IMG/VR virus record: IMGVR_UViG_3300030107_005430
Location: 1-64,000 of that record
Direction: 5' to 3' (one strand)
Origin: a virus
DNA length: 64,000 bases
This document shows, one piece after another, positions 1 through 22,695 of this stretch (positions are counted from its first letter, which is position 1; each line of letters begins with the position of its first letter). The notes beneath the pieces are model-generated. The model ran no database searches and had not been told where the DNA came from. It was given only the letters and a program-made list of their open reading frames with translations. The translations under genes and the position numbers were made by a program.

Positions 1-731
1 CTTGCTTCCGGGTTCGCATGTGCATGTGATCCTCGATGAGAATCAAATTGTATTTTATGATTTCCTCCACCCATGTTCTGATGATGACGATTGATGAATG
101 CAGCAGCATGAGTGATGATTCTCTTTGCTTGTTTTGCTGTGTGTTTTCCGGTGCGTGCGGTTCCTTCACTGTCCACATCGAAATCAACCTTTGATATGTT
201 GCTTCCCTTGTGATGATGTGCTGTCATGTTGACATTGTTTTTGCCAATCTTGCGATCAAGTGAGTGTATCGTGTCGTTGCTATCTGAATCGGTGCTGATG
301 TTTTTGATGTTCATTTTGGTAGACAGACGATTTGCTTTGTCTACAACTGATCTTTGTTTCTTCTCTAGTATCATGTCTCCGATTGTACCATGAAACTCTC
401 CTGCATTCAACTCAATAACATACTTAGCCTTCTCTGCTGGATACGCACCTCGCGTGTCAAATGGCTGTAGTGTCTGAACGTCTACAACTCGTCCGTCTTC
501 ATTGATCCAGATGACATCCAATGGTATACGAGTGTTCTTCATCCACATACCATGTGTGTCCTCTGTTTCGAATACAAAGATCATTCCTCTGTCGTGTTCA
601 AGAGACTCACGAAACATCATTCCCCTCTGAAACGATTGTTCGTCATTCGTAGTGTATACTTTATACGACTTGTCGCCAATCGTCATGGGAATGTATTCTG
701 ATTCTGTGATGTGTCTCTTGAATGATTTCAT
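1..731 (-). CDS. Capsid-targeting-leader protein with DUF192 domain and His-rich C-terminal module (partial, runs off left edge)
   Basis: Hand translation from ATG 731 (ATGA overlap with upstream stop): MKSFKRHITE, then QRGMMFRESL..GMIFVF..GMWMKNTRIPLDVIWI..YVIELNAG (DUF192 motifs), then ILE and a His-rich region open to position 1. Confidence 0.85.
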   Translation of the reverse strand, partial: MKSFKRHITESEYIPMTIGDKSYKVYTTNDEQSFQRGMMFRESLEHDRGMIFVFETEDTHGMWMKNTRIPLDVIWINEDGRVVDVQTLQPFDTRGAYPAEKAKYVIELNAGEFHGTIGDMILEKKQRSVVDKANRLSTKMNIKNISTDSDSNDTIHSLDRKIGKNNVNMTAHHHKGSNISKVDFDVDSEGTARTGKHTAKQAKRIITHAAAFINRHHQNMGGGNHKIQFDSHRGSHAHANPEA

Positions 732-1060
732 TTTCTCTTCCTACTTGGTCCTAAAAATGGCGCAATTGCAAACACTGCAAGTGTACCCGGTGCAGGAGTA
801 ATAACTCCATCGGATATAAGATGTCCTGCTCCTGAATTAAAATTCGATATCGAATCAATCCATTCTACAACTGCGTCAAGTGCTTCCTTTCCAAAGATTG
901 CTCCAATTCCCACGGCGATTGCTGTAAGAATGAATACCTTCTTATCAAGTGCTTTAATTTTTTTGTCCTTCGACTTCTGACTCTCTTTACATTTATGTAG
1001 ATCATTTTTTAGTTGTTGTACTTCGCGTGATTGACAGTTTGAACATACGTTCTTATCCAT
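728..1060 (-). CDS. Small coiled-coil/TM protein with C-terminal PEP-CTERM-like (PAPG) sorting signal
   Basis: CxxC, coiled coil, TM (VFILTAIAVGIGAIFG), C-terminus TPAPGTLAVFAIAPFLGPSRKRK. Confidence 0.7.
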   Translation of the reverse strand: MDKNVCSNCQSREVQQLKNDLHKCKESQKSKDKKIKALDKKVFILTAIAVGIGAIFGKEALDAVVEWIDSISNFNSGAGHLISDGVITPAPGTLAVFAIAPFLGPSRKRK

Positions 1061-1087
1061 CGTGACTTTTCTCCTGTGAAATGTGGT

Positions 1088-1366
1088 TTACTTATCTCCT
1101 CGTACATCGCGTATAATTTGATCTATATTTTTGTCACGATTGTATGATTCTCTCGTCATGAATTCTGATCTTGATTTTGCGAGAGAATATACTCTATCCA
1201 TTACTTTGTCATGTTCACGTTCCATTTTTCTTATTCTTGATCTGTTACTTTCACACTCTTGTTCTAATTTTGTTACCTTATGCGAAAACTTCCACACGAA
1301 ACCTACTAATGAAAATAAGCCCGTAGTGAGAATAGTGATTGCAATATCTACCCAGTCAATTGTCAT
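1088..1366 (-). CDS. Hypothetical membrane-anchored coiled-coil protein
   Basis: N-terminal TM then coiled coil; ATGA coupling with upstream gene; SD aggag. Confidence 0.75.
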   Translation of the reverse strand: MTIDWVDIAITILTTGLFSLVGFVWKFSHKVTKLEQECESNRSRIRKMEREHDKVMDRVYSLAKSRSEFMTRESYNRDKNIDQIIRDVRGDK

Positions 1367-2178
1367 TCGTCTCCTTTGGATTCATGATGAAACATGTTCG
1401 CATGATCGTGTGGGAAATTCAATTTGGGTTGATGTATAGACTTTCCTTTTCCGTCTGTTCCTACATTCATTCTTCTTGCATTGGAATAGAGATGGTGTTC
1501 GAGTGGTTTACCTTTCTTTCCGCCATTGTAGGTGGTTCGGGATACCATGTTCTTTCCATCCATCTCATGATGTCCATGATGTGTGTTGTCTGGATTGTAT
1601 TTGTTTCCATGAAGTGCATGGGATACTTCTGCATGGTTCGCTTGATATGCATCCCATGCTACTGTCTTTCCGTTGGAATAACTGATCGTTCTTGTTGCGC
1701 CACTTGATGTATTGCCGACATGCTTTCGAAGTTGATCTGCGGAATGTATGTGTGTGACTCGAAGAGGTTCACCACCACCAAGATCTAACTTCTCTACCTT
1801 CTCTAAAATGCTTTCACTAGTTTCCTCTGGATGTGGTACATTCTGTTGCCATGCTTGATCTACTTTAGGATGTCTGCCATAACCAGCGCCACTTTTTGCA
1901 CTGATACTCATTCCTCTTTTCTTTTGACGTTGTGCATTGTTTAGACGATTCTTAATTAAATTTGCTGCCACTTTATGAATCTCTTGTCTAACTGGATGAA
2001 TATGATAATCATGATCTCGGTGATGTGCATTGGATGACACTCTTGAAGCAACATGATCACCACGAATTTCAAGGCGATCACCGCCTTTTCCGTCCGCAAA
2101 TCTTCGAACCGCTTTGAATTCTTTCTTAGAGAGTTTATCTTCATTCTCTTCTCTACAAAAGATTATAAATGATTTCAT
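1363..2178 (-). CDS. His-rich putative internal head protein
   Basis: Starts MKSFIIFCREE; internal SESILE linker; downstream of late promoter 2201-2208. Confidence 0.7.
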   Translation of the reverse strand: MKSFIIFCREENEDKLSKKEFKAVRRFADGKGGDRLEIRGDHVASRVSSNAHHRDHDYHIHPVRQEIHKVAANLIKNRLNNAQRQKKRGMSISAKSGAGYGRHPKVDQAWQQNVPHPEETSESILEKVEKLDLGGGEPLRVTHIHSADQLRKHVGNTSSGATRTISYSNGKTVAWDAYQANHAEVSHALHGNKYNPDNTHHGHHEMDGKNMVSRTTYNGGKKGKPLEHHLYSNARRMNVGTDGKGKSIHQPKLNFPHDHANMFHHESKGDE

Positions 2179-2200
2179 TTGCACACTCCTACAGTTATAT

Positions 2201-2212
2201 TATTTATAAATA
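2201..2212. promoter_or_regulatory. Palindromic bidirectional T4-type late promoter TATTTATAAATA
   Basis: TATAAATA on both strands between divergent genes. Confidence 0.75.
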
Positions 2213-2217
2213 TTTTC

Positions 2218-3132
2218 ATGAGAACATTCAAACAATACATCTCAGAAGTAATCGCCAGAAGAGGTTCGGATTACATTGTAATGAACAAAAATCGTTCAAA
2301 GGTTCTTGGTGTTCATAACAGCAAAGACAAAGCACAACGACAACTTGCAGCAATCGAGATCAGTAAACAGGAGTCCGTGTCTGAAGTGTATAAAGATTCA
2401 GGACTTGGTAAGTGGTTCGGTGCTGGTGGTAAGGGTGGAGTAGGTAAAGGTGGATGGGATCGCTACAACACAAAAGGTGAACGCATTGGAAAATGTGGTG
2501 AGGGTAAACCCGGCGAAGGTAAACCAAAGTGCCTGTCCGCAACCAAGGCAAGAAAACTCAAATCTCAAGGTGGTAAGAAAGCGATTGCAAATGCAGTCAA
2601 AAGAAAGAAAGCACAGGATCCGCAGACAGATCGTCCCGGAACCGGAAACAAACCAATCAACGTATCAAACAGGATAGAAGAAGTTATGAAATCATTTAGA
2701 AATCACTTGAACGAAAAGAACGTACCAACTGATCCCGGTAAATGGGCAGCATCAAAAGCAGCAGCAAAGGCAAAGTTTGATGTATACCCATCCGCATATG
2801 CGAACGCATGGGCATCTAAGAACTACAAATCAAAAGGTGGTGGTTGGAGAAAGACAGACGAATCTGTAGATGAAGATTGGCAGAAAGCAAATCGTCAAGA
2901 CAAGACAGACGGTATGAGTCAGAAAGCAGTGAATGCATATCGTCGTGAGAATCCGGGATCAAAACTCAAAACAGCAGTCACCGAGAAAAATCCAAAGGGT
3001 AAGAGAGCAGGCAGAAGAAAGGCTTTTTGCAGCAGAATGAAAGGTATGAAGTCTAAACTCACAAGTGCAGAGACTTCAAGAGATCCAGATTCACGAATCA
3101 ATAAGGCACTTCGCCGTTGGAACTGCAACTAG
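2218..3132 (+). CDS. Modular basic polyprotein (leader plus about 4 modules; DUF5872- and DUF6321-like from recall)
   Basis: MRTFKQYISE..QESVSE..IEE/MKSFRNHLNE..DESVDE separate modules, incl. AKAKFDVYPSAYAN..GGGW and RRKAFCSRMKGMK..DPDSRINKALRRWNC. Confidence 0.75.
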   Translation: MRTFKQYISEVIARRGSDYIVMNKNRSKVLGVHNSKDKAQRQLAAIEISKQESVSEVYKDSGLGKWFGAGGKGGVGKGGWDRYNTKGERIGKCGEGKPGEGKPKCLSATKARKLKSQGGKKAIANAVKRKKAQDPQTDRPGTGNKPINVSNRIEEVMKSFRNHLNEKNVPTDPGKWAASKAAAKAKFDVYPSAYANAWASKNYKSKGGGWRKTDESVDEDWQKANRQDKTDGMSQKAVNAYRRENPGSKLKTAVTEKNPKGKRAGRRKAFCSRMKGMKSKLTSAETSRDPDSRINKALRRWNCN

Positions 3133-3146
3133 GGAGAACAGAATAT

Positions 3147-3677: not shown

Positions 3678-3686
3678 TGGTACAAT
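3658..3686 (+). promoter_or_regulatory. sigma70-type promoter TTGACA-N17-TACAAT, with an embedded CATAAATA late-like box
   Basis: Direct match upstream of the FmdB-like gene with SD aggagg. Confidence 0.6.
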
Positions 3687-3704
3687 ACACAGGAGGAATA
3701 ACCT

Positions 3705-4001
3705 ATGCCAAGTTATGATTACAAATGCGATAAGTGTGAACATGCATTCGAAGCATTTCTATCCTATGACAACAGAGAGAAACCGTGCAACGAACCATGT
3801 CCCGAATGTGGTGAGAAGAATGTTCAGAAAGTGATTGGTGGGTTTCCGGGACTCGGTTGTGATTCCAATGTAACACCAGATAAGAAGACTGGCGGGCAGT
3901 GGAGTCAGATGATGAATAGAGTTAAAGAATACCTACCGGAAAGAAATAAAAAGGTATTGGATCGAGCAACAAATGCATCAGGTAGACGCTGGTATGGTTA
4001 A
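3705..4001 (+). CDS. FmdB-family zinc-ribbon protein
   Basis: MPSYDYKCDKCEHAFE..PCPECG. Confidence 0.85.
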   Translation: MPSYDYKCDKCEHAFEAFLSYDNREKPCNEPCPECGEKNVQKVIGGFPGLGCDSNVTPDKKTGGQWSQMMNRVKEYLPERNKKVLDRATNASGRRWYG

Positions 4002-4492
4002 TCTACATGATACCCCTTGACACCAGTGTTCTCTGCATCATGTTCTTTATATTCTGGGTATGATCTTTGGAGTTGGTTTCTTGTTTTCTTCACAAGTCGA
4101 TTTATAACTCTTGCTTGATGAGTCGTGGATGTCTTTCCTGACTTATCCGGTACAGAGTTATTGATTGTATATTTCTTTGCTTTATGATCTACTCGTCCCT
4201 GAACATAATGTTCAGAATCACCTGCTTGATCCACTGCTTTATTTGGTTTCTTTCTTGGATGCTTCGATACCCACGAATCATGGTTTGCTGAATCTGGATG
4301 ATACACATAACCAGTTTTTCTTTCGTGTGCATCTCTCTGTTTTCTATAAAGATCTAGATGGTTTACTTTACCCCATCCAGAAACAGCACCATTATGATAA
4401 AGATCAACATGCTTCATATCTCTATGAAGAGTGTGATGACCAACATCATAAACACTACTGGCTTCTGATAGAAATTGCAGAAATGATTTCAA
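3998..4492 (-). CDS. His-rich putative internal head protein
   Basis: TTG start with SD aggaggt; MKSFLQFLSE leader. Confidence 0.75.
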   Translation of the reverse strand: MKSFLQFLSEASSVYDVGHHTLHRDMKHVDLYHNGAVSGWGKVNHLDLYRKQRDAHERKTGYVYHPDSANHDSWVSKHPRKKPNKAVDQAGDSEHYVQGRVDHKAKKYTINNSVPDKSGKTSTTHQARVINRLVKKTRNQLQRSYPEYKEHDAENTGVKGYHVD

Positions 4493-7398: not shown

Positions 7399-7956
7399 AT
7401 GCCAGACAACGACAACAATTATGTACCACTCGAAGATTACTTTAATAGTGACATCGACTTCGGATTCACCGCTGTGGATGCACAGGACGTAGAAGGTGAT
7501 GACGTACCACCACCCCCGAGTACACAAGAAGTAGTTTCAGAAGTATCTTCTGGAATTCTTTCGACTCTAGATGATTCTCTTGAGAACATACAGAGCAAAC
7601 TAAACGCATTACTTCTAAGAAACGACGAAGACGAACCCGGAATCGACAACAGCATTGATTTCTCTCGAATTGAAAGTAAACTGGATCAAATACTTGCAAT
7701 GGAGAATCAAGAACTTCTCACAGCAGTAAATGAACAAGGCGATAACATTCGTGCTGTCATTGATGAAGTAGAGGAACGAAAGAAACAACTCAATGAGCAG
7801 TATATTGTTCGAATGAGAGAAGTAGAAAAACTTATACTTCCTCTTTTATATCACCTCAAAAAGAATCCAGACAAAGAGTATATTTACTGGCCTGATCGAA
7901 CAGAAAAAATAGACGCCCAGATCTCCAAGATTCTACACCTGACAAGAGGACAATGA
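7399..7956 (+). CDS. Conserved T4-like phage hypothetical protein
   Basis: DFGF N-terminus and KLILPLL..LKKNPDKEYIYWPDR C-terminus, recalled from aquatic T4-like phages. Confidence 0.75.
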   Translation: MPDNDNNYVPLEDYFNSDIDFGFTAVDAQDVEGDDVPPPPSTQEVVSEVSSGILSTLDDSLENIQSKLNALLLRNDEDEPGIDNSIDFSRIESKLDQILAMENQELLTAVNEQGDNIRAVIDEVEERKKQLNEQYIVRMREVEKLILPLLYHLKKNPDKEYIYWPDRTEKIDAQISKILHLTRGQ

Positions 7957-8381
7957 TGAGATCATTCGTAAACTTTCTTCGAGAAAACGTATACTTTGGT
8001 TCCTCTGATGTTCAGGGAACTGGCGCTTTCTCGTCGAGAGATATTCCAAAGGGAAATCAGATCGGATTGTTTCTTCGTAAAGTAGAGGACAATCCACATA
8101 GAACATTTGTTCGTAGTGATCTGTGTAGATTAATGAATCACTCCTCCTCCCCGAATGCAGATTTAGTCATGAAAGGTGATGATGCATACGTTGTATCAAA
8201 CAAACCTATAAAAAAGGATGAAGAGATATTTGTAAACTATAATGATATCATGGACAAAGTACAAGCAGATGAGATTAAGAAAAATGAATTTGTACGATTG
8301 TATCCAGATTTGGAGAGAGAACGTCTTGAAGATGATAATGAAGACTTCTATGATGATCTAAAAAGTATGAGGCATAAATAG
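7953..8381 (+). CDS. SET-domain protein (putative lysine methyltransferase) with capsid-targeting leader
   Basis: MRSFVNFLRE; S-x-V-Q-G-x-G-A-F..IPKG; RLMNHSSSPNA; IKKDEEIFVNY. Confidence 0.85.
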   Translation: MMRSFVNFLRENVYFGSSDVQGTGAFSSRDIPKGNQIGLFLRKVEDNPHRTFVRSDLCRLMNHSSSPNADLVMKGDDAYVVSNKPIKKDEEIFVNYNDIMDKVQADEIKKNEFVRLYPDLERERLEDDNEDFYDDLKSMRHK

Positions 8382-8384: not shown

Positions 8385-9434
8385 ATGCGTATAGAAAAAT
8401 TTATATCATTAATAGAAGAAAACAACTCTCCTGAAATTAAGGAGAGTGCTGTTGTTCCAGAAAATATTCATGAAATTAAGGCTCTTGCGAAACTTGGTGC
8501 AAAGGTTATTGGTGGAGGTATTGGACGACTTGCTAGTTCTAGAACGGGACAAAAGGCAGCGGGATTTGCTGCAAAAGAAAAACCAATAAGAGGCCTCGCA
8601 GCAGGTATTTCCAAGGGCGTATCCAAGTTTGCAGGAAGTGGTATAGGAAAAGGTGCGATGAGTGCGGCAGGTATTGAACCGCAGGGTGGATTTTTCAAAA
8701 CGCTTGGAGCAGAAATCAAAGGCAAATATGGTGCGGGTGGTAAATCTCTTCAAACAGCAGTTAAGGGAAGATATGCAGGCGCGGGAAGCCCTGAGGCTGA
8801 GGCACGCGACAAAGCAATGCGGGATGCGGGCGAGGCGTCCGGTAAAAAAGCAAGGGAAAAAATTGGACAATTTAAACAAGCAGTTGGATCCCAAGTGGAT
8901 GTAACTAAACAGAATCTAGAAAAGAGAAGAGAAGAAAAAGCCACCGCAAAGGCTGAAAGAAAAGCAGCAAAGTTTGCAAGATCTCCCGAAGGTCAAAGAC
9001 AGGCTCGAAGTGCAGAAATAAAGGCTAGAGTGCTTGCTAATATTGAGAAGTCAAGAGAGGCAAGACAGTCGAAAGGTATGAGACAAGATCAGGCTGATAT
9101 CTCCACTGCAAAGGACACAGTAAACCAACGGTTAACTCCCGGTGGAGTAAGAACAATAAGGAATATAGCAAACTTCCGAGCGAAGCGAGGTGAGTTAGCA
9201 TACAGAAAACTCCGTCAGGATAACCCGGAAGTTGATAAAATCATTAGAACGTATAGTTCGGAAATCAGTAAAGAAGCAGGAAGAGCAGGAAGAGAACAAA
9301 GAGCAGGCGATGCTGCGGTTGATCGGGCAATAGCACAAGATCGAGTTAGGAAACGAGGCACAGATATCGGTAACACCGGAAGAGATGTTAGTAACAAGGG
9401 TAGATATGTCGGAAACCAACCACGCCAAACTTAA
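8385..9434 (+). CDS. Basic Gly/Ala/Arg-rich hypothetical (putative internal head protein)
   Basis: CATAAATA 4 nt before ATG; LIEE, IKE, IHE then a highly basic body. Confidence 0.7.
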   Translation: MRIEKFISLIEENNSPEIKESAVVPENIHEIKALAKLGAKVIGGGIGRLASSRTGQKAAGFAAKEKPIRGLAAGISKGVSKFAGSGIGKGAMSAAGIEPQGGFFKTLGAEIKGKYGAGGKSLQTAVKGRYAGAGSPEAEARDKAMRDAGEASGKKAREKIGQFKQAVGSQVDVTKQNLEKRREEKATAKAERKAAKFARSPEGQRQARSAEIKARVLANIEKSREARQSKGMRQDQADISTAKDTVNQRLTPGGVRTIRNIANFRAKRGELAYRKLRQDNPEVDKIIRTYSSEISKEAGRAGREQRAGDAAVDRAIAQDRVRKRGTDIGNTGRDVSNKGRYVGNQPRQT

Positions 9435-9932: not shown

Positions 9933-10601
9933 ATGCGAAAAAAGTATACTCATGTCCCATTGAATGAAGAGATAATATCTCCCACCACTGAATACCAGAA
10001 TGGTGGGAGATATTATTGCATTGGGAATGAGAAGTATCCTAGTGTAACGACAGTGACTGGATGGGAAAAGAGAAACTTCTTTGCAAAGTGGCGAAGAGAA
10101 AATCCCCTAGAGTCGAAGAGAGTTTTGAGTAGAGGAAACAACCTACACGAAGCAATCGAAAAATATATAAACAACGAAGAAGATTTTCTGAATGGTTGTA
10201 ATGATAATGTCATAGATCTATTCAATCAAATGCAACCTATGCTTGATAACATCGACAATGTACACGCACAAGAAGTTGCTCTATGGAGTGGTCTTTTGAA
10301 ACTCGCCGGAAGAGTGGATTGTGTTGCAGAGTATAATGGTAAACTCAGCATCATAGACTTCAAGGGTTCTACGAATGCAAAGAGAGAAAAGCAAATAGAA
10401 AATTACTTTGCTCAAGCGTGTGCATACGCAATCATGTGGCAGGAAAGATTTAATAAACCAATTGAACAAGTAGTGATACTCATATCAAATGAAGATGGAA
10501 TTACACAAGAATTTGTGAGAGATTCTAAGAAGTATGTTCCTACCCTTAAGAAAATGATTGATTTGTACTGGGAGGAAAATACTCAACTGATAAATACCTA
10601 G
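9933..10601 (+). CDS. PD-(D/E)XK (Cas4/RecB-like) exonuclease of T4-like phages
   Basis: YPSVTTV, RGNNLHEAIE, AGRVDCVAE..IIDFKGS, YFAQACAYA. Confidence 0.88.
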   Translation: MRKKYTHVPLNEEIISPTTEYQNGGRYYCIGNEKYPSVTTVTGWEKRNFFAKWRRENPLESKRVLSRGNNLHEAIEKYINNEEDFLNGCNDNVIDLFNQMQPMLDNIDNVHAQEVALWSGLLKLAGRVDCVAEYNGKLSIIDFKGSTNAKREKQIENYFAQACAYAIMWQERFNKPIEQVVILISNEDGITQEFVRDSKKYVPTLKKMIDLYWEENTQLINT

Positions 10602-10607: not shown

Positions 10608-11816
10608 TTGAGTATGTTAGAATTCAACCATTATTTAACCGAAGCGAATACCCACCTTACCCATATAGAAGATCTAGTCTTCGAGGGGGGTGCAAGAGTC
10701 GAAGAGGCGATTGCATTCCTTGAAGAGTTACTTGATATGTTATCAGGTAACGCAAGCGGTAAAATAAACACTACTGTAAAGTGGGACGGCGCACCTGCAA
10801 TTGTGTGTGGAGTAAATCCAGAGAACGGTAAGTTTTTTGTAGGATCAAAAAGCGTATTCAATAAAACGCCAAAAATAAATTATACAAACGCAGATATTCG
10901 CAAGAATCACGGGACGAAAGGTGTTGCAAAGAAATTACAAGTAGCACTCAAGTATTTGCCTAAACTTGGTATTAAAGGAATATACCAAGGTGACATGATG
11001 TTTGGTCCCGGTGATGTAAAACGAAAATCAATCGAGGGTGTTAGTTATCTTACATTTGCACCCAATACAATTACATATGCAGTCCCGATTACAAGTATGC
11101 TTGGACGAAGAATTGCAAGTGCAAAGATGGGTATCATATTTCATACAGAATATACTGGTAGGAATATGAAGTCTCTATCTGCTTCGTTTTCCCCCAAGGT
11201 AAAGTCATTAAGAAAAACAAAAGATGTCTGGTTCGACGATGCAACATATCAAGACACCAGCGGTAACGCTACAATGACAGCGAATGAAACAAGTGCATTT
11301 GAACAGAAAATCACTTCAATAAAAAGAAAATTAAATACCATAAAAACCTTTTTAGATGAATTAAAGGGTGATAAGAAAATCATAGACAAGATAAATATTT
11401 TCGCTAATGCACAAATTCGTAAAGGTGAATCTAAACTAAGCGTCAAAGAGTTCATAAACTGGCTCGATGAAAAGATGCAAGGAGAAATAGATTCAATGAA
11501 ATCGGAGGCGGGCAAGGAACGAAAAGAATTATCAAGGAAAGAATTTATGGATTACATTCAATCCAAAAATAAACAAATGAGTTCTATGTTTTCGCTCCAC
11601 TCCGATCTTTCATCTGCAAAGATTTTTATCATACGAAAATTAGAATCAGTAAAAAACATGGACAGTTTTATTCAAACACCGAATGGATTCAAGGTGACAA
11701 AACCAGAAGGATTCGTTGCAGTCGATAAGATGACAGACAACGCAGTAAAACTAGTAGATAGACTTGAATTTAGTAGAGCAAATTTCAATGCTCCGAAGAA
11801 TTGGATAAAGGGATAA
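10608..11816 (+). CDS. DUF6267-like protein; putative ATP-dependent RNA-ligase-family nucleotidyltransferase with capsid-targeting leader
   Basis: MLEFNHYLTE; NTHLTHIED; TVKWDGAP (motif I KxDG); YQGD (III); PEGFV (IV); VKLVDR (V); GATAAATA upstream. Confidence 0.7.
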   Translation: MSMLEFNHYLTEANTHLTHIEDLVFEGGARVEEAIAFLEELLDMLSGNASGKINTTVKWDGAPAIVCGVNPENGKFFVGSKSVFNKTPKINYTNADIRKNHGTKGVAKKLQVALKYLPKLGIKGIYQGDMMFGPGDVKRKSIEGVSYLTFAPNTITYAVPITSMLGRRIASAKMGIIFHTEYTGRNMKSLSASFSPKVKSLRKTKDVWFDDATYQDTSGNATMTANETSAFEQKITSIKRKLNTIKTFLDELKGDKKIIDKINIFANAQIRKGESKLSVKEFINWLDEKMQGEIDSMKSEAGKERKELSRKEFMDYIQSKNKQMSSMFSLHSDLSSAKIFIIRKLESVKNMDSFIQTPNGFKVTKPEGFVAVDKMTDNAVKLVDRLEFSRANFNAPKNWIKG

Positions 11817-11818
11817 TT

Positions 11819-12181
11819 ATGATTAGGGAACATGTCAATCAAAGAAATACTCGAACATGGGCAATGATGAATGATAATTCCAAAAGCGAGTATAACAGAT
11901 CAAAATTTGTAGAACAACACGGTGGTGAATTTATACATAATTGGGATAAACACGGTGGAATATGGCTGTGGAGAGAAACTACTGAAAAAGCAGAAGAAAA
12001 CTCTTCCCAGAATAATAAAACCGAATATATATTAACGAATTCAAATGGTGAAGAATTTATAGTAGATAATGTGAGTAAGTTTTGCAGGAAAAATGAATTG
12101 AATAAATCAGCACTCTATGAAGTTTTAAAGGGAAATAGATCCCACCACAAAGGCTTCACTATGAGAAGAAAGGATAAGTAA
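11819..12181 (+). CDS. Hypothetical protein with C-terminal NUMOD/HTH-like DNA-binding module
   Basis: YILTNSNGEEFIVDNVSKFCRKNELNKSALYEVLKGNRSHHKGF resembles homing-endonuclease-associated modules. Confidence 0.6.
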   Translation: MIREHVNQRNTRTWAMMNDNSKSEYNRSKFVEQHGGEFIHNWDKHGGIWLWRETTEKAEENSSQNNKTEYILTNSNGEEFIVDNVSKFCRKNELNKSALYEVLKGNRSHHKGFTMRRKDK

Positions 12182-12490: not shown

Positions 12491-15400
12491 ATGAAGAAGA
12501 TTGTATTCACATTCGGTAGATTTAACCCACCAACAATCGGGCACAAACTTCTCGCTGATAAGGTGAAGAAGCAGGCTAAGAAATTGGGTGCAGAGTCTAG
12601 AGTATACGCATCCCCGTCATTTGATAAAAAGAAAAATCCATTATCATTTGAGCAGAAATTGAAAGTGATGAGAAAGGTTCTGCGGGGAACAAATTTGGCA
12701 ACCGATTCGAGTATACGAAATCCTTTCCATGCACTCAAACAATTAAGCGATCAGGGATATACTGATGTTACAATGGTAGTTGGTTCTGATCGTGTCGCCG
12801 AATTCAAGAGATTGATTTCAAGGTACATTGGTAAAGATTTCAACTTTGATAAATTTCAAGTTGTCTCTGCTGGTGAAAGAGATCCTGACGCAGAAGGTGT
12901 TTCTGGAATGTCTGCTTCGAAAATGAGAGCAGCGGCAGAGAGCGGAAACTTCTCCGCATTTCGTGTAGGTCTTCCTTCTACTGTTTCTGAAAGAGACGCA
13001 AAAAATATATTCAGCACCGTACAAAAAGGTATGGGTGTCAAACCATTCATTAAGGAATCTTGGTTCGACTATGATGAGTTCGTAGAGTTTGCAGAACAAT
13101 ATGAAGAGGAAAATGTTGAAGAAGGTAGGAGAATGTATAAGGCTAAGGTACAAAGATTTAAAGAGAGAGATAGCCTTTCGAGACAACATGCAATCGAAAA
13201 ATATAGATTGATGGCTACACACCAAAGAAGAAGAATGAAAGCAAGAGAAGCAGACATAAGGGCTGGTGACAATGCACTTGAAAGTGTTGAGTCGAATGAA
13301 AATGAACTCAATGAAATAACGATGCAAGCAAGAAGAAAAATGGCAAGAGCAGCAAAAAGAACTGCGAAGAAAAGAGCAAGAGTTCGTGCGATCAAACAAA
13401 AAAGAAGAAAAACCAGAGGGGAAATTGAAAAGAAAAGTCGAAAGGCTGCTCGCAATTTCTTCAAGAAGAAAATTATAAAATCCATGAAGTGGGAAAAGGT
13501 TCCCATTAAGCAAAGAGAGAATATTGAAAAGATTCTCGATAAAAAGAAAACCGCGATCAATAAACTCTCGAAGAGGATGATTCCAAAAATGCAAAAAGCA
13601 GAACAGGAAAGATTGAAAAGATTGAAATCAAAGATGACATCAAACAATCCACAAAAGGCTCAGGAAAGTTTCGATGATCAATTTGAGAGAATGTTAAATG
13701 AAGAACCCATTCGAAAAGCGATGAAAAAAGATCGTGAAATGAATAGAGGAACTGGTGCATCGAATCCGAAAGAGAAAGACGCTGCTCGTAAACGTGCAGA
13801 GAGAGATACTGCTGGTAAGAAAAAGGACGCAGTGGATCGTTCATGGGAAAAATCTAGCAATCCTTGGGATCATGTCATCATAGTCAAAGATGATCGTGAT
13901 GATTCATATAAATTAGAAATGGCAGATGATTTGAGTGTTGAACATCATGAGTTGATTGCGGGTCCATCCGTATCTCCAGATACAAAGAGTAAAGGTAAAG
14001 TTACTCTCTCTAAAGTTACTAATCTAATTAATAGGGGAGAACCATTTACCGAAACAAAAACATCCAAGAGACTATTGGATCATATGGATGATATGAAGAG
14101 TGAATTGGATAAAGTTTCTGGTGAGGAAGAACAACCGGAACAGCAGCAACAACCGGCGAGTCCTGAAGAGCAACAAGCGGCTGCTGAACAAGAACAGATG
14201 GAAATGGAACAGCAGGCTCAAGAAGAATTCGAAAAGGAATATTTTGTTGGTAAAGAAGGTGCTAGGATACCAAGATCACTCGATCCCAAGACTCTAACTA
14301 AACTTAGAAAAGAAGGACTCGGACAACAAAGAAATTTTGATCAAATTGAACTTCCACAAGCAAGAGTTCCAATCCCGAAAGACGAAGGAAAGCAATTGGA
14401 ATATGCTTTCACATATGTTGGACTTCAACGAAGTGGAATGTCTGAAGAAGACATCGAAGCAAGACTACAACATACTCCAGAATTGACAGCGTTTAATGAA
14501 GATAGTTTAGGTAGAGCAAAGGCTATGATCAAAGCAATGGGAGAATCTGGTTTTGATCCTTCACAAATAGCCGGTTGTGCATACAGCGGAGAACTTGGTA
14601 TTTCGGGCATCAAAGGCGGAGAGCCAAAAACTGATAATGTTATTCTCCTAGAGAAAGATGATCCTATGAATGACTGGGCATTCACCAAAGGTATGCTCGG
14701 TGTCAGTATGAAAAAGGACGGAGACATCCAAGCATCTTCCGCACAGGGACCAAGAGCAAGTTCTGATATGAAAATGGGTGTTCAGGATTCTATTCAGAAT
14801 GGAGAAATGAGCAATAAATTGTCCAAGTCTCTTTCTAAATTGTTAGAAGATGTTAGCAACATGCCAAGTAAAATAATCGCACCCAGAAATGTGGATAAAG
14901 CATTGTCTTCTCCTCAAAATTATACAGATAAAAAACAGGTAGGAAACCCAGAGTACCTAAAACCTGCTGTTCGAGATCTGTTTGTGAACGGAGATCCAAC
15001 ACAAGGAATTCGTGACGAAGTGAATGGTGAGATCTGGACTCAAAAATTAGGAAAACAAATAAGCAAAAAAATAGAGGAAGAGTTTAAAGCAAACCCAGAA
15101 ATGGCATCTAGAGTTCTGTTTGAACAATTAAGTGGTCAAAGTACATTCTCACAAGAAGGAACCGACAGCAGAGCAGCAGCAGATGTTATGGTTACACCCT
15201 ATGGTATGAAAAGAATAACTTTGGATTATTGTCAGAAACTTATTGAGACTGGTGCAATTAGCGTTCGTGTTTCCCAGAAGGGATCTGGTGGTGGACTCGG
15301 AAGAATGACATTAAGAGTCGATGTCAAGGGTGAAGCATCTGGATCTCCTGCAATCAAAAACGTAGCACAGTTCTTGACTGGTGTAGGAATCAATGAATGT

Positions 15401-16069
15401 GTAAACACCATGAGAAGATTCGTAACAGAATCAATGGATGAAACTGGCGTTGCAGACACCGATTTAGTTAGAAACGATCTACAGGACCATGTCGGTGATA
15501 TAGCATCATCACTGTTTATGAAAAATTATGATGTTTCATTAGAAGGTGATTTGTTCAAACCATTTGAAGAGGAACATGACAGTGGAGAATCCAATACTGT
15601 CACTATAGGTAAGAAAACATTTAATATCCCTGTAATGAAAATGGCAGATGATATCACCTATAAGAAGAAGAATTATAGTGACGACACACCAGAAACTCCT
15701 GCGGATCGAAACAGGATGACAGAGGGAAGAAACTATAGAAAAGAATACGAAAACTACCAAGGTACACCTAAACAAAGAGCAAATCGAAGCAAGAGAGTTC
15801 TTGCAAGAAGAAGATTGATGAACCTCGGAAGAGTAAAAAAAGGCGACGGTAAAGACGTTGATCATAAAAACGGAAACCCAAAAGATAACTCTGATGGAAA
15901 TTTAAGAGTAAGATCTGTACATGCAAATAGAAGCGACAATAAACAATCAGTACGAAAAGAAGAACACGGTGCAGGTGAACAGGGAACGAGTAAACTCTTA
16001 AGGAAGTATATGAAAGATACTCCATATGCAAAATTATACAATCTTGATAATGCAAAAGATAAAAAGTAA
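12491..16069 (+). CDS. Multidomain protein: HIGH-family cytidylyltransferase-like domain, basic helical modules, PD-(D/E)XK-like domain, C-terminal HNH-like domain
   Basis: FGRFNPPTIGH, VVGSDR, SAGERDPD, MSASKMR; EPKTD..GVSMKK; KDVDHKNGNPKDNSDGNLRV..ANRS. Confidence 0.8.
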   Translation: MKKIVFTFGRFNPPTIGHKLLADKVKKQAKKLGAESRVYASPSFDKKKNPLSFEQKLKVMRKVLRGTNLATDSSIRNPFHALKQLSDQGYTDVTMVVGSDRVAEFKRLISRYIGKDFNFDKFQVVSAGERDPDAEGVSGMSASKMRAAAESGNFSAFRVGLPSTVSERDAKNIFSTVQKGMGVKPFIKESWFDYDEFVEFAEQYEEENVEEGRRMYKAKVQRFKERDSLSRQHAIEKYRLMATHQRRRMKAREADIRAGDNALESVESNENELNEITMQARRKMARAAKRTAKKRARVRAIKQKRRKTRGEIEKKSRKAARNFFKKKIIKSMKWEKVPIKQRENIEKILDKKKTAINKLSKRMIPKMQKAEQERLKRLKSKMTSNNPQKAQESFDDQFERMLNEEPIRKAMKKDREMNRGTGASNPKEKDAARKRAERDTAGKKKDAVDRSWEKSSNPWDHVIIVKDDRDDSYKLEMADDLSVEHHELIAGPSVSPDTKSKGKVTLSKVTNLINRGEPFTETKTSKRLLDHMDDMKSELDKVSGEEEQPEQQQQPASPEEQQAAAEQEQMEMEQQAQEEFEKEYFVGKEGARIPRSLDPKTLTKLRKEGLGQQRNFDQIELPQARVPIPKDEGKQLEYAFTYVGLQRSGMSEEDIEARLQHTPELTAFNEDSLGRAKAMIKAMGESGFDPSQIAGCAYSGELGISGIKGGEPKTDNVILLEKDDPMNDWAFTKGMLGVSMKKDGDIQASSAQGPRASSDMKMGVQDSIQNGEMSNKLSKSLSKLLEDVSNMPSKIIAPRNVDKALSSPQNYTDKKQVGNPEYLKPAVRDLFVNGDPTQGIRDEVNGEIWTQKLGKQISKKIEEEFKANPEMASRVLFEQLSGQSTFSQEGTDSRAAADVMVTPYGMKRITLDYCQKLIETGAISVRVSQKGSGGGLGRMTLRVDVKGEASGSPAIKNVAQFLTGVGINECVNTMRRFVTESMDETGVADTDLVRNDLQDHVGDIASSLFMKNYDVSLEGDLFKPFEEEHDSGESNTVTIGKKTFNIPVMKMADDITYKKKNYSDDTPETPADRNRMTEGRNYRKEYENYQGTPKQRANRSKRVLARRRLMNLGRVKKGDGKDVDHKNGNPKDNSDGNLRVRSVHANRSDNKQSVRKEEHGAGEQGTSKLLRKYMKDTPYAKLYNLDNAKDKK

Positions 16070-16719: not shown

Positions 16720-16746
16720 ATACATATGTTATATTAGGAGTTTTAT

Positions 16747-18210
16747 ATGTCAAGTGTAATATATCTTCAAGGTATTGGGGAAAAGCCAGCAAAGATGGTT
16801 TCAGAACTATCTGAGGGTGATATATTTCTCAAAAACTATGGTTATAAGTATAGAATTATAGCGTGTGAATCGTTGAGTGAAAATGTATACGAACTCACAT
16901 TTGAATCTTTGAATTCAACAGATCCGGGATGTAGATATTCTAAAACCGTTCGAGGATCTACGTTGGTTGGTATTCATGAAGATGAAGGTGTTCAAGACTT
17001 AAATGAAGATATGAGATTGATGCAACAATTGCACATGGCACAAAAAAGAGCGACTGATAGAAAAAGAAGAGAAGACGAAGAAAGAGAGAGAAAAAGAAGA
17101 GAGAATCAAGAACTCTCTGCAAACAAACAAGTTTCTGGTGAATTTGCAGGTGCAAGAGAAGAAACCATCGCTGACAAAATTTTGAACTTCATGTCAGAGA
17201 GAAAATTCAGCAAAGCGGAAATAAAAAAGAGGAAGAAGGTTGGAGATAAACTACCTAAAGGTGAGTTTAAGAAAAATTATCCTAATCCCAGACCTCCTGC
17301 AAAATCATGGAAAGATGTTCTCTGGGCAACAGCAACAAACATCGTGAAGGGTGAGAAGACTGAAGAATCCGTTGAACTGGATGAAACAAGGGATAGGGCT
17401 GAACTCATTAACCTCATGAACAGAACAGGTGAAAAAGTAGCATCCGATACTAAAACAGACAAAGGAAGAGTTACTCCCAAAACGAATCAAGCACTGCGAA
17501 TTAATATCAAAGCAAGAAAAAGACTCGGACTTCCCGTTGAATCCGTTGAACTGGATGAACTCAAGACACCAACATATAAATCTTATAAAAGAAAAGCAGA
17601 TAAACAAGAAAAGGATCTGTTTGATAAGGGCTACTCTGATCTGAGTCCCGAAGAAAAGAAGAAGGCGGACAAGAGAAGAGAAGGAATCAATAGAGCAGAC
17701 AAGTTGATAAGAAAACGCCGTGAAGGTTTACATAGAGATCCTCCAAGACCGGGTAGGGAACGGATTCAAGATGAGGTGGTAAAGGAAGCAATCGCTGATG
17801 GGAAACCAAAGTCCAAGAGTCAAAGAAGAATGGACGTTGCTATATCTAAAATTGATAGAGCGTTTCCTGAGACTAAAAACCAGAAATGGGCAAAGCAAAG
17901 AGGCGGTTTTAGTGGATATGACAGAATACAATCTGCTGCTTCAAGGATGCAAAGAGGACACGATCCTGAAAAGATGAAAAAAGAACCCGATGATGTTTTC
18001 CAGAACACATCAGATGTCAGAGCAGCAGAGAAATTAATGAAGAAGAGAAGACAGAGAAGCAAGAAAGCAAGTATACAAGACAGCGTACAGAAAAACATAC
18101 TCTCCCAATTAAAGAATTTCGATTTATCTGGAGAGGGGCTCGATATTCCTGCTATAAATAATAAGAAGTGGGGAACCGAAGGATTCAAAAACAAAAGGAA
18201 AAACTCATGA
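16747..18210 (+). CDS. Modular basic polyprotein with ESVELDE linkers
   Basis: LNE, MSE, EESVELDE, VESVELDE, VVKE separate Lys/Arg-rich modules. Confidence 0.75.
   Translation: MSSVIYLQGIGEKPAKMVSELSEGDIFLKNYGYKYRIIACESLSENVYELTFESLNSTDPGCRYSKTVRGSTLVGIHEDEGVQDLNEDMRLMQQLHMAQKRATDRKRREDEERERKRRENQELSANKQVSGEFAGAREETIADKILNFMSERKFSKAEIKKRKKVGDKLPKGEFKKNYPNPRPPAKSWKDVLWATATNIVKGEKTEESVELDETRDRAELINLMNRTGEKVASDTKTDKGRVTPKTNQALRINIKARKRLGLPVESVELDELKTPTYKSYKRKADKQEKDLFDKGYSDLSPEEKKKADKRREGINRADKLIRKRREGLHRDPPRPGRERIQDEVVKEAIADGKPKSKSQRRMDVAISKIDRAFPETKNQKWAKQRGGFSGYDRIQSAASRMQRGHDPEKMKKEPDDVFQNTSDVRAAEKLMKKRRQRSKKASIQDSVQKNILSQLKNFDLSGEGLDIPAINNKKWGTEGFKNKRKNS
17365..17559 (+). repeat. 21-nt exact direct repeat GAATCCGTTGAACTGGATGAA (17365-17385 and 17539-17559)
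   Basis: Read directly; encodes ESVELDE; related copy at 5155-5175. Confidence 0.9.
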
Positions 18211-18698
18211 AAAAGTATAAAGAACTAACAGCATTCCTCGCAGAAATGGGTCCAGAAAACACCGAAGTCGGTGGTGGTGACGCACGTTCTGCACACAACG
18301 ATTTTGGTGTACACCGAATCGAAAATCCAGAGCAACTTGGCAGGATAAGTGCATTTCTCAATGCAATGACACAAAGAGAATTTCTTGATCCCAAGGCTGC
18401 TCTTGTACAGATGAGATGGAAGATGAATCAGGCTGGTCTTGATTTTAACTTTACCGGAAAAGAATCAGTAACTGAAGGTACTAGAGATTTTCATCTGACT
18501 CGCTATGGTGGGACTTTTGGTAAGAGTCCAACAACACCCCATGACGAATTCGAAAGAACCGATGGTATAGCAGAATTCAATAATGGCAAAAGTTTAGCAC
18601 TAAGAGTAACAGTAGAACAAGCAAAAACAGGAATGTATAACATAGATGCTTCTATTGTTCCAGTACAAGGAAATGCAAATAAACCAATCAGTCTTTGA
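18207..18698 (+). CDS. Conserved phage hypothetical protein
   Basis: MKKYKELTAFLAE leader; ATGA coupling; TATAAATA at 18153-18160. Confidence 0.75.
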   Translation: MKKYKELTAFLAEMGPENTEVGGGDARSAHNDFGVHRIENPEQLGRISAFLNAMTQREFLDPKAALVQMRWKMNQAGLDFNFTGKESVTEGTRDFHLTRYGGTFGKSPTTPHDEFERTDGIAEFNNGKSLALRVTVEQAKTGMYNIDASIVPVQGNANKPISL

Positions 18699-18716
18699 TT
18701 TAAATTCTATTTTATT

Positions 18717-19661: not shown

Positions 19662-19672
19662 GGAATCGTCAC

Positions 19673-19840
19673 ATGGCTTGCAGCAGTTGCAGCAAAGGGA
19701 AAAAAATAAACAGAACCAGTAGTAGAATAAATCAAAAATCGAAAGTGACAATTCCCAAGAGATCATGCACCAAAGTAACAAAAAGAACAAATGAAGTAAC
19801 CGAGAAACGAAAAGTAAAGACCACTCTCAGGAGAAGATAA
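19673..19840 (+). CDS. 55-aa very basic protein with CxxC
   Basis: Hand translation MACSSCSKGKKINR..TLRRR; TAATG coupling to next gene. Confidence 0.55.
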   Translation: MACSSCSKGKKINRTSSRINQKSKVTIPKRSCTKVTKRTNEVTEKRKVKTTLRRR

Positions 19841-20223
19841 TGAAAGAGTTCAACACTTTCAAGCAAGAATTAACAGAAACCATTGCAAATTCTATGGGTG
19901 GTGGTTTTGCTGTCAATCAGGCTGCTGAAACCGGAAATCCTAATCTTGCAGGATATGATCCTGTCATGGGTTTTCAGACAAGGGACAAGGACAGGAAGAA
20001 AAAAGATAAATTTGCAGGGGTTCAAGTATTCAAATTGAATTCGGAAGAATACAACAATTGCATTCAGGGCAGAATGCGATATGAGAGATGGAACAAGAAG
20101 TTAAACATGGAAGACTTCAACAACCAAGAAATTAGAAAATATGCTCACAAAAATCCGGGGCAACCCATAATTGTTATGGATGAGAATACAGGTGTCATGA
20201 GTTACCTTATTCCTAAAAAATGA
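19840..20223 (+). CDS. Hypothetical protein with capsid-targeting leader
   Basis: MKEFNTFKQELTE; SD aggag. Confidence 0.75.
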   Translation: MKEFNTFKQELTETIANSMGGGFAVNQAAETGNPNLAGYDPVMGFQTRDKDRKKKDKFAGVQVFKLNSEEYNNCIQGRMRYERWNKKLNMEDFNNQEIRKYAHKNPGQPIIVMDENTGVMSYLIPKK

Positions 20224-20235
20224 CGGAGAAATATC

Positions 20236-20682
20236 ATGCTTAGTTCTTTCCTCACACCAGAGTTTTTAACATTAACAGCAAGCAGTTTGACTGGTTTTCT
20301 TTTCAAGTTTTGGGCTGAAAAGAGACAAGATCAAAAAGAAATATACGACAGAATGATCGGTGCTTCAAAGCGTTCTGACGAAAGTGCAGACGCAGCGGTG
20401 AAGCGTGTTCCTCTGGATGCAGGTAAACAGGTACGAAGATTAATCGTGCTATGCGTATTGTTTGGTACTATACTTGCACCATTTATTCTTCCATTCTTTG
20501 GTGTTCCTACAGTCGTAGAACTCACCGAGAAGGAAGGATCTTTCCTTGGAATCTTCGGTGGTGGTGAAAAGATATCTTTCCATGAAGTATATGGATATCT
20601 CTTCACAGAAGAAAATCGCCAGATTCTTCTAGCGATTGTTGGTTTTTACTTTGGACAAGCAGTAGGGAAATCTACACGATGA
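20236..20682 (+). CDS. Membrane protein (possible holin-like)
   Basis: 2-3 hydrophobic segments; C-terminal AIVGFYFG. Confidence 0.6.
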   Translation: MLSSFLTPEFLTLTASSLTGFLFKFWAEKRQDQKEIYDRMIGASKRSDESADAAVKRVPLDAGKQVRRLIVLCVLFGTILAPFILPFFGVPTVVELTEKEGSFLGIFGGGEKISFHEVYGYLFTEENRQILLAIVGFYFGQAVGKSTR

Positions 20683-20921
20683 GAATTATAATTATAGCGT
20701 CTTTATTATCTCTTCTTTCAGCATGTTCTGGTTACGTTAAAGTAAACGGAACCGAACAACATGGAAACGTACCAGCCGAAAATCCTGTTATCACAAGAGG
20801 TGAAGAGGGCATTCAACACAACTCTTCAAACTTTTGGTTGTATTACATTCCTGCACTTGGTTTGATTAGTTTTATTACTTATAAAACTTTCCACACACCG
20901 AAACAAACTAAGACCGATTAG
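20679..20921 (+). CDS. Small lipoprotein with C-terminal TM
   Basis: Lipobox LSAC; C-terminal FWLYYIPALGLISFITY. Confidence 0.6.
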   Translation: MRIIIIASLLSLLSACSGYVKVNGTEQHGNVPAENPVITRGEEGIQHNSSNFWLYYIPALGLISFITYKTFHTPKQTKTD

Positions 20922-22695
20922 CACTGCTTAAGATACCAGTTCTTGGATTATATCTAAATCTTTCCTGAATGTTGTATTCCACCTGCTCTGTTTTTGCTAG
21001 AGCAGGAATTAGTCTTCTCAGATACGGTGCTAGAGGCCTAAGAAGATTTGGAACAACACCCGGTCCTATTGGTGGGATAACCATCGGTGGTATATATGGT
21101 TTAAAGTTTGGAGATAGCGGATTTGTATCAGGTCGAGGCTTCGGTTCTGGAAAGAGCGGAGGAACCGTTTGTGGATTGTTTGGATTAAACGGTATTGGTT
21201 GCAATTGTGGATATGGATTATTTGGATCATATCCCGGACGTTTAGGCCATTTTTCGGGACGAGGATCTACTTCCCACGGTGGAATTATATCTCCTGTGTC
21301 ATGTCCTAGTTCAGGCATACCTTCTGTATCGAGGCCAAATGGTGATCCCGGTCCACCCGGAGTTTCATCACCATATGGATCTTGATCCGGTAACGTAGGA
21401 TCTTTTCTTAAAAGTCCCGGACCGAATGGTCGATCTTCAAGATCTTGTGGATCTATAGGTCCATCACCATCAACAGGTTTCGGTGATGTTTCTGGTCGTC
21501 CAGTATCTGGATCAATGCCCGGAGGAATATTTTTCTGTGGTGGTTGGCCAGAACGATTAACACTACTCAATGTACCAGTTCTTGGATTATATCTAAATCC
21601 TTTTTGTCCCGGAGGAATATTTCTGTTTGCACCGGGCACGAAGTCGGGATCAGTTTTCCACGGATCCACAATCGGAGTTCCGGTTGGAAGATCATCGACT
21701 TCGGGTGTTGTTTTATACGGTTTACCCTGAGAATCTGTAGGTTGGCGATACGGAAGCCACTGCCATGGTTTCGGATATCCGGGTTCATCTACAATACCAT
21801 CACCATCGGTATCACCACCCTGCTGACCGGGACCAGATGGTGTAAAACGATCAAACCAACCGGGAGGAAAAATTTGGTAGGGATATGGATTCCGAAGAAA
21901 CGCCGGAGTATTTCCGGGACGATTCGGTGGATATGGATCAACTGTACTGTCTGGTGCGGTGTAGTGACTAGGTATCTCACTGTCACTATATTTGTCTCCA
22001 TCAGCGTCCAACCAGTGTGCTGATTTATCACCTTGCATGATGTCAACGTACCAGTCTGGCAACCGATCATATCCCGGTCCATCATCGCTATCACCACCGG
22101 GTTCGGATTCTGACCTCTGTGTTCCATACTCACCAGTGTCTTTGATATCCCACGCAACATACTTAGATGCATTGTCATTATTAAACTTATCTGGATTTTG
22201 CCATATGTTCTTAACAACATTCGAATTAATCTTTGCAATTCGATCTGCATATGAATCAACATAGGCATGATAAGCATGAGTTTGCTTATCCATTGTTTTA
22301 AGAACATCTTTAATGTCTGCTATTGTTGTTTTTCCGTCCCAAGCAATACCAAATTTACGAGCGAGTTCGGTGGATGCTTGTATTCTGTCATTTAATCTTG
22401 CAGTGTTATATGCTTTATACAATCCTTGAGGATCATTTTCGTCTGCTTCGATTCCTTTATCGGATAATACCTGTTTCACTGTGGTTTCGATTTCAGGTGT
22501 CAATTCCCAACCAAAACCAAATCTCTTTTTAGCACCTGTGACTTTAGGAGTTTTATAAACAGTTCCATCCACACCAGTATTATCAAGACCACCGGATGTA
22601 TTCAATCCAGAAATACTGGACAAACCAGAAGTAGAAGAACCAGCAGAGTTTGTTGATAAAACTTCATTAATGGTAGAATAAAGATCTTTTGACAT
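20908..22695 (-). CDS. Pro/Gly/Asp-rich hypothetical protein
   Basis: 595-aa ORF; TATACATA and SD upstream; duplicated FRYNPRTG motif. Confidence 0.75.
   Translation of the reverse strand: MSKDLYSTINEVLSTNSAGSSTSGLSSISGLNTSGGLDNTGVDGTVYKTPKVTGAKKRFGFGWELTPEIETTVKQVLSDKGIEADENDPQGLYKAYNTARLNDRIQASTELARKFGIAWDGKTTIADIKDVLKTMDKQTHAYHAYVDSYADRIAKINSNVVKNIWQNPDKFNNDNASKYVAWDIKDTGEYGTQRSESEPGGDSDDGPGYDRLPDWYVDIMQGDKSAHWLDADGDKYSDSEIPSHYTAPDSTVDPYPPNRPGNTPAFLRNPYPYQIFPPGWFDRFTPSGPGQQGGDTDGDGIVDEPGYPKPWQWLPYRQPTDSQGKPYKTTPEVDDLPTGTPIVDPWKTDPDFVPGANRNIPPGQKGFRYNPRTGTLSSVNRSGQPPQKNIPPGIDPDTGRPETSPKPVDGDGPIDPQDLEDRPFGPGLLRKDPTLPDQDPYGDETPGGPGSPFGLDTEGMPELGHDTGDIIPPWEVDPRPEKWPKRPGYDPNNPYPQLQPIPFNPNNPQTVPPLFPEPKPRPDTNPLSPNFKPYIPPMVIPPIGPGVVPNLLRPLAPYLRRLIPALAKTEQVEYNIQERFRYNPRTGILSSANRS
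20934..21599. repeat. 27-nt exact repeat TACCAGTTCTTGGATTATATCTAAATC (20934-20960 and 21573-21599)
   Basis: Read directly. Confidence 0.85.

Follow-up and report, generated by a model that had tools for sequence, protein, structure and literature searches.

Nine genes of an uncultured marine virus encode proteins that share an N-terminal leader, which we interpret from sequence comparison, with a probability of roughly 0.75, as a capsid-targeting propeptide of the type carried by the internal proteins (IPs) of bacteriophage T4; by analogy with T4, the tagged proteins most probably travel inside the capsid and reach the host together with the DNA. The stretch analysed, called the window here, comprises positions 1-64,000 of the 157,073-bp contig IMGVR_UViG_3300030107_005430. 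The two ends of the contig share 161 nt (window 1-161 and genome 156913-157073) with 98.8% identity; because of this overlap the genome, though classed as linear, is effectively circular (circular or circularly permuted, and essentially complete), and the 146-157 kb region therefore adjoins window position 1. Eight leader genes lie within window positions 1-20223 and the ninth is found across the circular junction at genome position 146867. The consensus of the leader is M-[KR]-x-[FY]-x-x-[FYH]-[IL]-x-E or a 13-residue variant, and one further site lies inside a gene (2686). The initial annotation of this DNA had listed eight such N-termini, and all of them are present where it placed them: 731(-), 2178(-), 2218(+), 4492(-), 7956(+), 10614(+), 18207(+) and 19840(+). 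The internal sequence MKSFRNHLNE at 2686, which it had also listed, was confirmed.

The strict search pattern, M[KR]x[FY]xx[FYH][IL]xE, was derived from the T4 sequence MKTYQEFIAE and was not fitted to the phage genome. Across the six reading frames of the 157-kb genome it has six matches. At called N-termini, five strict matches were observed against 0.011 expected from the internal rate, and a looser pattern gave seven matches against 0.015 expected; when the N-termini were shuffled 2000 times, the mean was 0.004 matches. No leader-pattern matches were found in the replication and glycan genes (23-80 kb), in agreement with the earlier claim that the motif is absent from them. As a positive control, the pattern was applied as DNA to T4, where it matches only IPII, IPIII and gene 61.1. 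The last of these (NC_000866, 18966-19130) encodes 54 amino acids (aa), starts with MKTFKEFIKE and matches the full pattern; we know of no report that gp61.1 is packaged. Among relatives, strict matches are found in Melnitz and S-RIM8 (two each), HTVC008M (one) and S-SSM7 (one, doubtful), and there are none in Syn1 and S-8S53.

The leader resembles the capsid-targeting sequence (CTS) of the T4 internal proteins in the positions that matter for its function. The CTS of IPII and IPIII, MKTYQEFIAE, is removed by the prohead protease gp21, and mutagenesis of IPIII has assigned residues 4 and 7 to targeting and residues 8 and 10 to processing (PMC9026906). The conserved positions of the leaders are F/Y4, F/Y/H7, I/L8 and E10, whereas positions 2, 3, 5, 6 and 9 are variable. 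The split layout of T4 IPI (MKTFKEF...ITE/A, a 19-residue propeptide; a slash marks the cut, predicted in the case of the phage proteins) provides a precedent for the 13-residue variants MKKYKELTAFLAE and MKEFNTFKQELTE. The two systems also agree in leader length and late expression, both have a protease of gp21 type and a gp22 scaffold, their cargo proteins are mostly basic but not related in other respects, and the gene set varies between relatives; the internal proteins of T-even phages form a diverse set with only the CTS in common (PMC3012670). They differ in that the phage lineage is distant from T4, nine genes are tagged instead of three, the cargo includes entire enzymes of up to 400 aa, and there are fusions with internal tags.

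The genome encodes a prohead protease (Peptidase_S77, 3.6e-37; 43% identity to T4 gp21), a gp22-type scaffold (phrog_237, 7e-73), a homologue of the late sigma factor gp55 (1e-59) and a portal protein. Judged by its genes, the phage is a marine T4-like myovirus: the major capsid protein is ~60% identical to gp23 of the Methylophilales phages Melnitz and of cyanophages. A search of the phage collection for near-identical DNA gave no match. Most of the leader genes had been said to follow late-promoter boxes, and a genome-wide test bears this out: a late box (TATAAATA or NATAAATA; ATAAATA) is found at most 70 nt upstream of 5/9 leader genes versus 15/179 others (Fisher p = 8e-4), and three further leader genes belong to operons headed by a late box. 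Overlapping, near-palindromic copies of TATAAATA (2201..2212) serve the divergent genes 2178(-) and 2218(+), and the box of the former is 30 nt upstream of the gene. A late-promoter-like box, GATAAATA (10590..10596, +), is located ahead of the DUF6267 gene, and TATAAATA (18154..18160, +) ahead of leader gene 7. The leader genes are thus predicted to be expressed late, in a gp55-dependent manner. In two of them, 2218 and 146867, only 5 nt and 4 nt, respectively, separate the end of TATAAATA from the ATG (window 2205-2220 and genome 146867-146879), and a Shine-Dalgarno sequence is missing from both; from this arrangement their transcripts may be leaderless late mRNAs.

Judged by codon use, selection is on the leader peptide rather than on the DNA, because synonymous codons vary while positions 4, 7, 8 and 10 stay. 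The codons differ both among the leaders and among relatives (TCA/TCG/TCT/AGT, TTC/TTT, ATC/ATT/ATA and GAA/GAG), and the DNA upstream of the leaders is unrelated. This bears on the explanation that the resemblance is a signal at the nucleotide level (a translation-initiation region, or a mobile cassette of promoter, ribosome-binding site and leader) or is due to chance. Two observations could be read as signs of a nucleotide signal, namely the codon of Ser3, which is TCA in 6/6 leaders compared with a 24% share genome-wide, and the short distance between TATAAATA and the ATG in the two genes just described. Free variation at synonymous sites and unrelated upstream DNA contradict it, and chance is excluded by the N-terminal match statistics; we find this explanation hardly credible.

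The leader element also occurs in the phage's own gp23. This protein has YITE56/Q at the place equivalent to the T4 cut site FLTE65/A, at an equivalent distance from the conserved VRR-PNL block, and YITE is the only [FYH][IL]xE in the entire protein. Leader gene 8 (19840..20223, +) encodes a protein of 127 aa which begins with the 13-residue variant MKEFNTFKQELTE/T and copies, in residues 8-43, the gp23 segment spanning the predicted maturation site (53% identity, E = 2e-9): its ELTE/T and the next 30 residues align onto the YITE/Q segment. The phage's own protease substrate therefore shares the leader element. The family of 19840-20223 is annotated as 'major head protein' in cyanophages (T4-GC426), and the protein might slot into the capsid lattice.

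A link with virions is provided by the cyanophage S-SM1. A cytidylyltransferase of family T4-GC190 was detected in purified S-SM1 virions, where its presence was left unexplained, and no tag or loading route was mentioned (Sullivan et al. 2010, PMC3037559). The families T4-GC190 and T4-GC71 were mapped via GenBank notes; the S-SM1 member of T4-GC190, SSM1_190, has the N-terminus MKKFSAFLNE, and its S-RIM8 homologue starts with MKKFSAFLTE. SSM1_190 is homologous to the N-terminal domain of the 1192-aa protein of the window (12491..16069, +), which belongs to the same family and contains a cytidylyltransferase/NMNAT-like domain at its N-terminus. The S-SM1 gene adjoins DUF6267, and the gene of the window is likewise near DUF6267; the S-SM1 protein is tagged, whereas the copy of the window phage has no leader. 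Between the DUF6267 gene and the 1192-aa gene there is a conserved HNH gene (11819-12181, NUMOD-like). The order DUF6267-HNH-giant cytidylyltransferase is found in 7/7 metagenomic relatives (L013-L016, L021-L023), a conservation which indicates that the HNH gene is a fixed resident and not a recent insertion. DUF6267 and the giant cytidylyltransferase are fused in some phages, since the profile phrog_455 spans both.

These observations also bear on the proposal that the shared N-terminus is an amphipathic helix unrelated to the capsid, serving as a docking peptide for another phage or host partner or in membrane association. The hydrophobic residues 4, 7 and 8 would share one face of such a helix, T4 gene 61.1 has the motif without known packaging, and the physical packaging of the tagged proteins is here inferred only. 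A helix of this kind leaves four things unexplained: the invariant terminal Glu, the match to the residues defined by mutation in T4 for targeting and processing, the same element at the gp23 maturation site, and the detection of a tagged S-SM1 enzyme in virions. We regard it as very unlikely and prefer the capsid-targeting propeptide.

The distribution of the leader among homologues of the cargo proteins shows that it can be present or absent on the same protein. Among the 120 closest metagenomic homologues of the DUF6267 protein, nearly all are tagged and continue with a KNTHLxHLED motif; the untagged exceptions resemble truncated gene calls. The DUF6267 proteins of the cyanophages Syn1, S-8S53, S-RIM8, S-SSM7 and S-SM1 begin directly at KNTHLxHLED, without the tag. 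The N-terminal leader pattern is found in 85/120 of the closest homologues of the kinase encoded by leader gene 9, and most others have shifted or variant tags. Furthermore, the sets of tagged genes differ among syntenic metagenomic loci, Melnitz and HTVC008M, and one locus has four in a row. Judging from these comparisons, the tag is a portable add-on. The capsid-targeting reading of the initial annotation is thus supported by the T4 functional positions, the genes for protease, scaffold and sigma factor, the gp23 site, the portability of the tag and the virion enzyme of S-SM1.

The leader genes encode a varied set of proteins. Leader gene 1 (3..731, -) starts with MKSFKRHITE/S and contains DUF192 (8e-27) and a basic, His-rich C-terminal module; it crosses the circular junction to genome position 156414, which gives a total of 409 aa. 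An internal ILE/KK in this protein aligns with the leader of a separate gene of a relative (L013_1042). Leader gene 2 (1363..2178, -; MKSFIIFCRE/E) encodes a His-rich protein of 271 aa with an isoelectric point (pI) of 9.6 and no known family, and is the first gene of a minus-strand late operon which ends with gene 1; no relatives of the protein were found in the viral contigs searched. Leader gene 3 (2218..3132, +; MRTFKQYISE/V) encodes 304 aa (pI 10.3) with a C-terminal DUF6321, and the second, complete leader inside it (2686..2715, +; MKSFRNHLNE/K) occupies residues 157-166. The relative L021 has MRSFREYLNE/K at the same place. In DSL-LC04, which is not a T4-type phage, each of these modules is a small gene of its own; both genes lack the tag and lie between those for the capsid and the adaptor. 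From its layout, gene 3 looks like a fusion of two tagged modules, and the internal tag at 2686 is a probable cleavage junction or internal start. Both gene 3 and the gene of the DUF192 protein look like tagged genes that were fused head to tail with the internal tag retained.

Leader gene 4 (3998..4492, -) has a TTG start, preceded by an AGGAGG Shine-Dalgarno sequence, and encodes 164 aa (pI 9.6) with the leader KSFLQFLSE/A; its orthologue in the relative L013 has an ATG start and begins with MKSFRQYIT. Genes 4 and 1 have a C-terminal module in common, and are the only two of the nine to share one. For this reason the description of the cargoes as unrelated is only nearly right, though enzymes are among them as the initial annotation had proposed. 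In leader gene 5 (7956..8381, +), the leader MRSFVNFLRE/N is followed directly by a minimal SET-domain lysine methyltransferase (PF00856: 1.4e-11, 45.1 bits vs a cut-off of 22.4), in which GxG, NHSxxPN and EEIFVNY (ExxxxY with the catalytic Tyr) are intact when aligned to KMT2C. By comparison with homologues, the start of this gene is most likely 7956. The homologues retain the tag, and one has a 58-aa insert between tag and domain. In the relatives L021 (12547-17538, 1663 aa) and L022 (10051-14355, 1434 aa), a SET domain is located inside the giant cytidylyltransferase protein, and these proteins hold it in place of a stand-alone tagged SET gene.

Leader gene 6 (10614..11816, +; MLEFNHYLTE/A) encodes the DUF6267 protein (1.8e-120; 400 aa, pI 9.5). 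The residues K56, D58 and G59 of its KxDG motif are invariant in 35 sequences. Its alpha/beta domain shows weak matches to RNA editing ligase 1 and Trl1-LIG (Z 6.4 and 6.1, respectively), and the top Foldseek match of the model, T4 Rnl1, is not significant (E = 0.1); the protein is, on its predicted structure, an RNA-ligase-like candidate. Residues 1-15 are unstructured in the AlphaFold model, with a predicted local distance difference test (pLDDT) score below 50. Sequence searches of solved structures with the DUF6267 protein, the kinase and the 1192-aa protein gave nothing useful. Leader gene 7 (18207..18698, +) encodes 163 aa with the 13-residue variant MKKYKELTAFLAE/M and no assigned family; HTVC008M has a conserved counterpart upstream of DUF7207, and in Melnitz and metagenomic relatives the position is held by a tagged gene. 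Leader gene 9 (genome 146028-146867, -; MRSFKQHLEE), outside the window, encodes a P-loop kinase with a GGAGSGKG motif (Walker A) and a marginal match to Zeta_toxin (22.5 bits vs a cut-off of 22.3). Many of its homologues, of ~450 aa, have a C-terminal HAD-type phosphatase domain, NT5C (PF06941), which gene 9 lacks. The pI is at least 9.2 in 6/9 cargo proteins, as expected for internal proteins lying with the DNA.

The weaker cases put forward in the initial annotation fared less well. Chance places [IL]xE within the first 15 residues of ~12% of proteins, as estimated from residue frequencies. The leaders at 4603 and 5636 were rejected on this expectation and because the Glu is not conserved in the orthologues of relatives, and the leader at 22695 was rejected on the chance expectation, its orthologues not having been compared. 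A possible variant leader remains at 8385..9434 (+), where a Gly/Ala/Lys-rich protein of 349 aa (pI 10.5) starts with MRIEKFISLIE/E (MRIEKFISLIEE); it is a weak candidate of shifted type, retained only in the close relative L016. A reading of the 1192-, 487-, 347-, 349- and 595-aa proteins as polyproteins was dropped, as there is no excess of [FYH][IL]xE junctions in them; it is retained only for 2218-3132 and the DUF192 gene.

Taken as a whole, the proposed mechanism would proceed as follows; we infer its docking, packaging, cleavage and injection steps from T4 and the S-SM1 proteome. The tagged proteins would be made late in infection, the aromatic residues 4 and 7 would dock the leader onto a prohead core based on gp22, and formation of the gp23 shell would enclose the proteins. 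A gp21-type protease would then cut after the Glu of [FYH]-[IL]-x-E (residue 10, but residue 13 in the long variants) and perhaps also at the internal tag copies of the fused genes. The mature, mostly basic proteins would remain with the DNA and, at infection, exit from the head together with it. Candidates for this cargo are the SET methyltransferase, the RNA-ligase-like DUF6267 protein, the P-loop kinase, the DUF192 protein and several small His/Lys-rich proteins. That a T4-type head can take up large enzymes, which gp21 trims and which then reach the host, is known from the CTS fusions of T4 (beta-galactosidase, green fluorescent protein and nucleases) and from T4 Alt, a packaged ADP-ribosyltransferase (PMC9026906); Alt has short propeptides of its own and not an IP-type CTS, and the CTS fusions are artificial, in contrast to the naturally tagged enzymes here.

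Several points weigh against this interpretation. No late box can be recognised at leader gene 4492, gene 2218 is without a Shine-Dalgarno sequence, and gene 2178 has Cys at leader position 8. T4 gene 61.1, which lies among early-region genes and is annotated only as encoding a hypothetical protein, also has the motif, and therefore the motif alone is no proof of packaging. The tag is missing from cyanophage DUF6267 and from the phage's own cytidylyltransferase, a member of a virion-associated family, from which it follows that the tag is not the sole route into the virion and is not needed for enzyme activity. Finally, the ejection of enzymes of at least 45 kDa is assumed by analogy with T4 Alt and the CTS fusions.

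The tagged proteins could also enter the prohead core as assembly accessories (core or scaffold components, or fillers which condense DNA) that are degraded or retained, and not as an injected payload directed against the host. T4 offers examples, since IPIII affects head assembly and the core proteins gp67 and gp68 are cut by gp21 (PMC9026906). In the phage itself several cargo proteins are small, basic and of low complexity, gene 19840 copies the gp23 maturation segment, which suggests a structural role, and the DUF6321 and PSAYANA modules of DSL-LC04 lie within a head-structure module. An assembly role is not obvious, however, for the SET protein, the KxDG nucleotidyltransferase and the Walker-A kinase, the catalytic motifs of which are intact. 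The kinase is also fused to a phosphatase domain in many relatives, and the tagged set varies between relatives like the published T-even internal proteins. We judge a pure assembly role to be unlikely.

If the tagged proteins are injected, the enzymes among them (RNA-ligase-like, polynucleotide-kinase-like, nucleotidyltransferase and SET) could form a kit for a first strike before phage gene expression, in which the RNA enzymes would mend tRNAs that host anticodon nucleases had cleaved, and a host protein would be modified by the SET protein; this is a tentative suggestion, and we consider it rather doubtful in this specific form. The Chlorella virus PBCV-1 is reported to carry in its virion a minimal SET methyltransferase, vSET, and this enzyme is reported to act early in infection on host chromatin. 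It differs from the phage SET protein in belonging to a eukaryotic virus, in its histone targets and in having neither a CTS nor a prohead protease. Proteases related to gp21 are also found in the giant phages phiKZ and SPN3US, in which many head-internal proteins are cut after the Glu of a short motif (PMC9026906, PMC5694885); these phages have their own cleavage logos, and the descriptions of them mention no N-terminal tag of ten residues and IP type (PMC9026906). It has been speculated that T4-like phages load varied proteins via the CTS (PMC9026906). CTS cargo is thus known as a kind from T4; in the literature searched, no account of it in T4-like phages of marine origin was found.

Some features of the remaining genome were also recorded. 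The leader-gene cluster is flanked by a small protein with a lipobox-like N-terminus (window 20679-20921, +) and a trypsin-like serine protease with an apparent lipoprotein signal (window 23513-24280, -). A run of ~25 kb of sugar-nucleotide and glycosyltransferase-like genes extends from window 42000-64000 on to genome position 68000, and is unusually large for a 157-kb phage. At genome 88807-92669, there are two adjacent paralogous gene pairs (441/446 aa and 191/183 aa) with near-identical N-termini, which look tail sheath- and tube-like, judged by where they lie in the structural module. Three giant proteins (2052, 1920 and 1016 aa) encoded at genome 100093-115117 open with GPTGPTGPT-type repeats and are probably collagen-like fibres. 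Finally, a 6-kb island at genome 150000-156000 has 51-56% G+C, compared with ~37% G+C in the genome, and contains genes for a MoxR/CbbQ-type AAA_5 ATPase (400 aa) and a 715-aa protein without family; the island may have been acquired horizontally, or it may stem from a chimeric assembly.

If the capsid-targeting interpretation is true, the T4 CTS mechanism, a textbook case known mainly from three small coliphage proteins, would be seen to work across abundant phages of the ocean. Unknown phage genes for packaged and probably injected proteins could then be predicted by a simple rule at the sequence level. The presence of enzymes such as the cytidylyltransferase in purified cyanophage particles would be explained, and a concrete enzyme cargo (SET methyltransferase, ligase-like and kinase-like proteins) would be named, the targets of which could be tested in marine hosts. 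The leaders also suggest themselves as natural tags by which marine phage capsids could be loaded with foreign proteins. Should the more doubtful injected-kit proposal hold as well, the tag would define a large, ocean-wide class of injected phage effectors, judging by the DUF6267 and kinase homologues, which number in the thousands and whose closest members are nearly all tagged.

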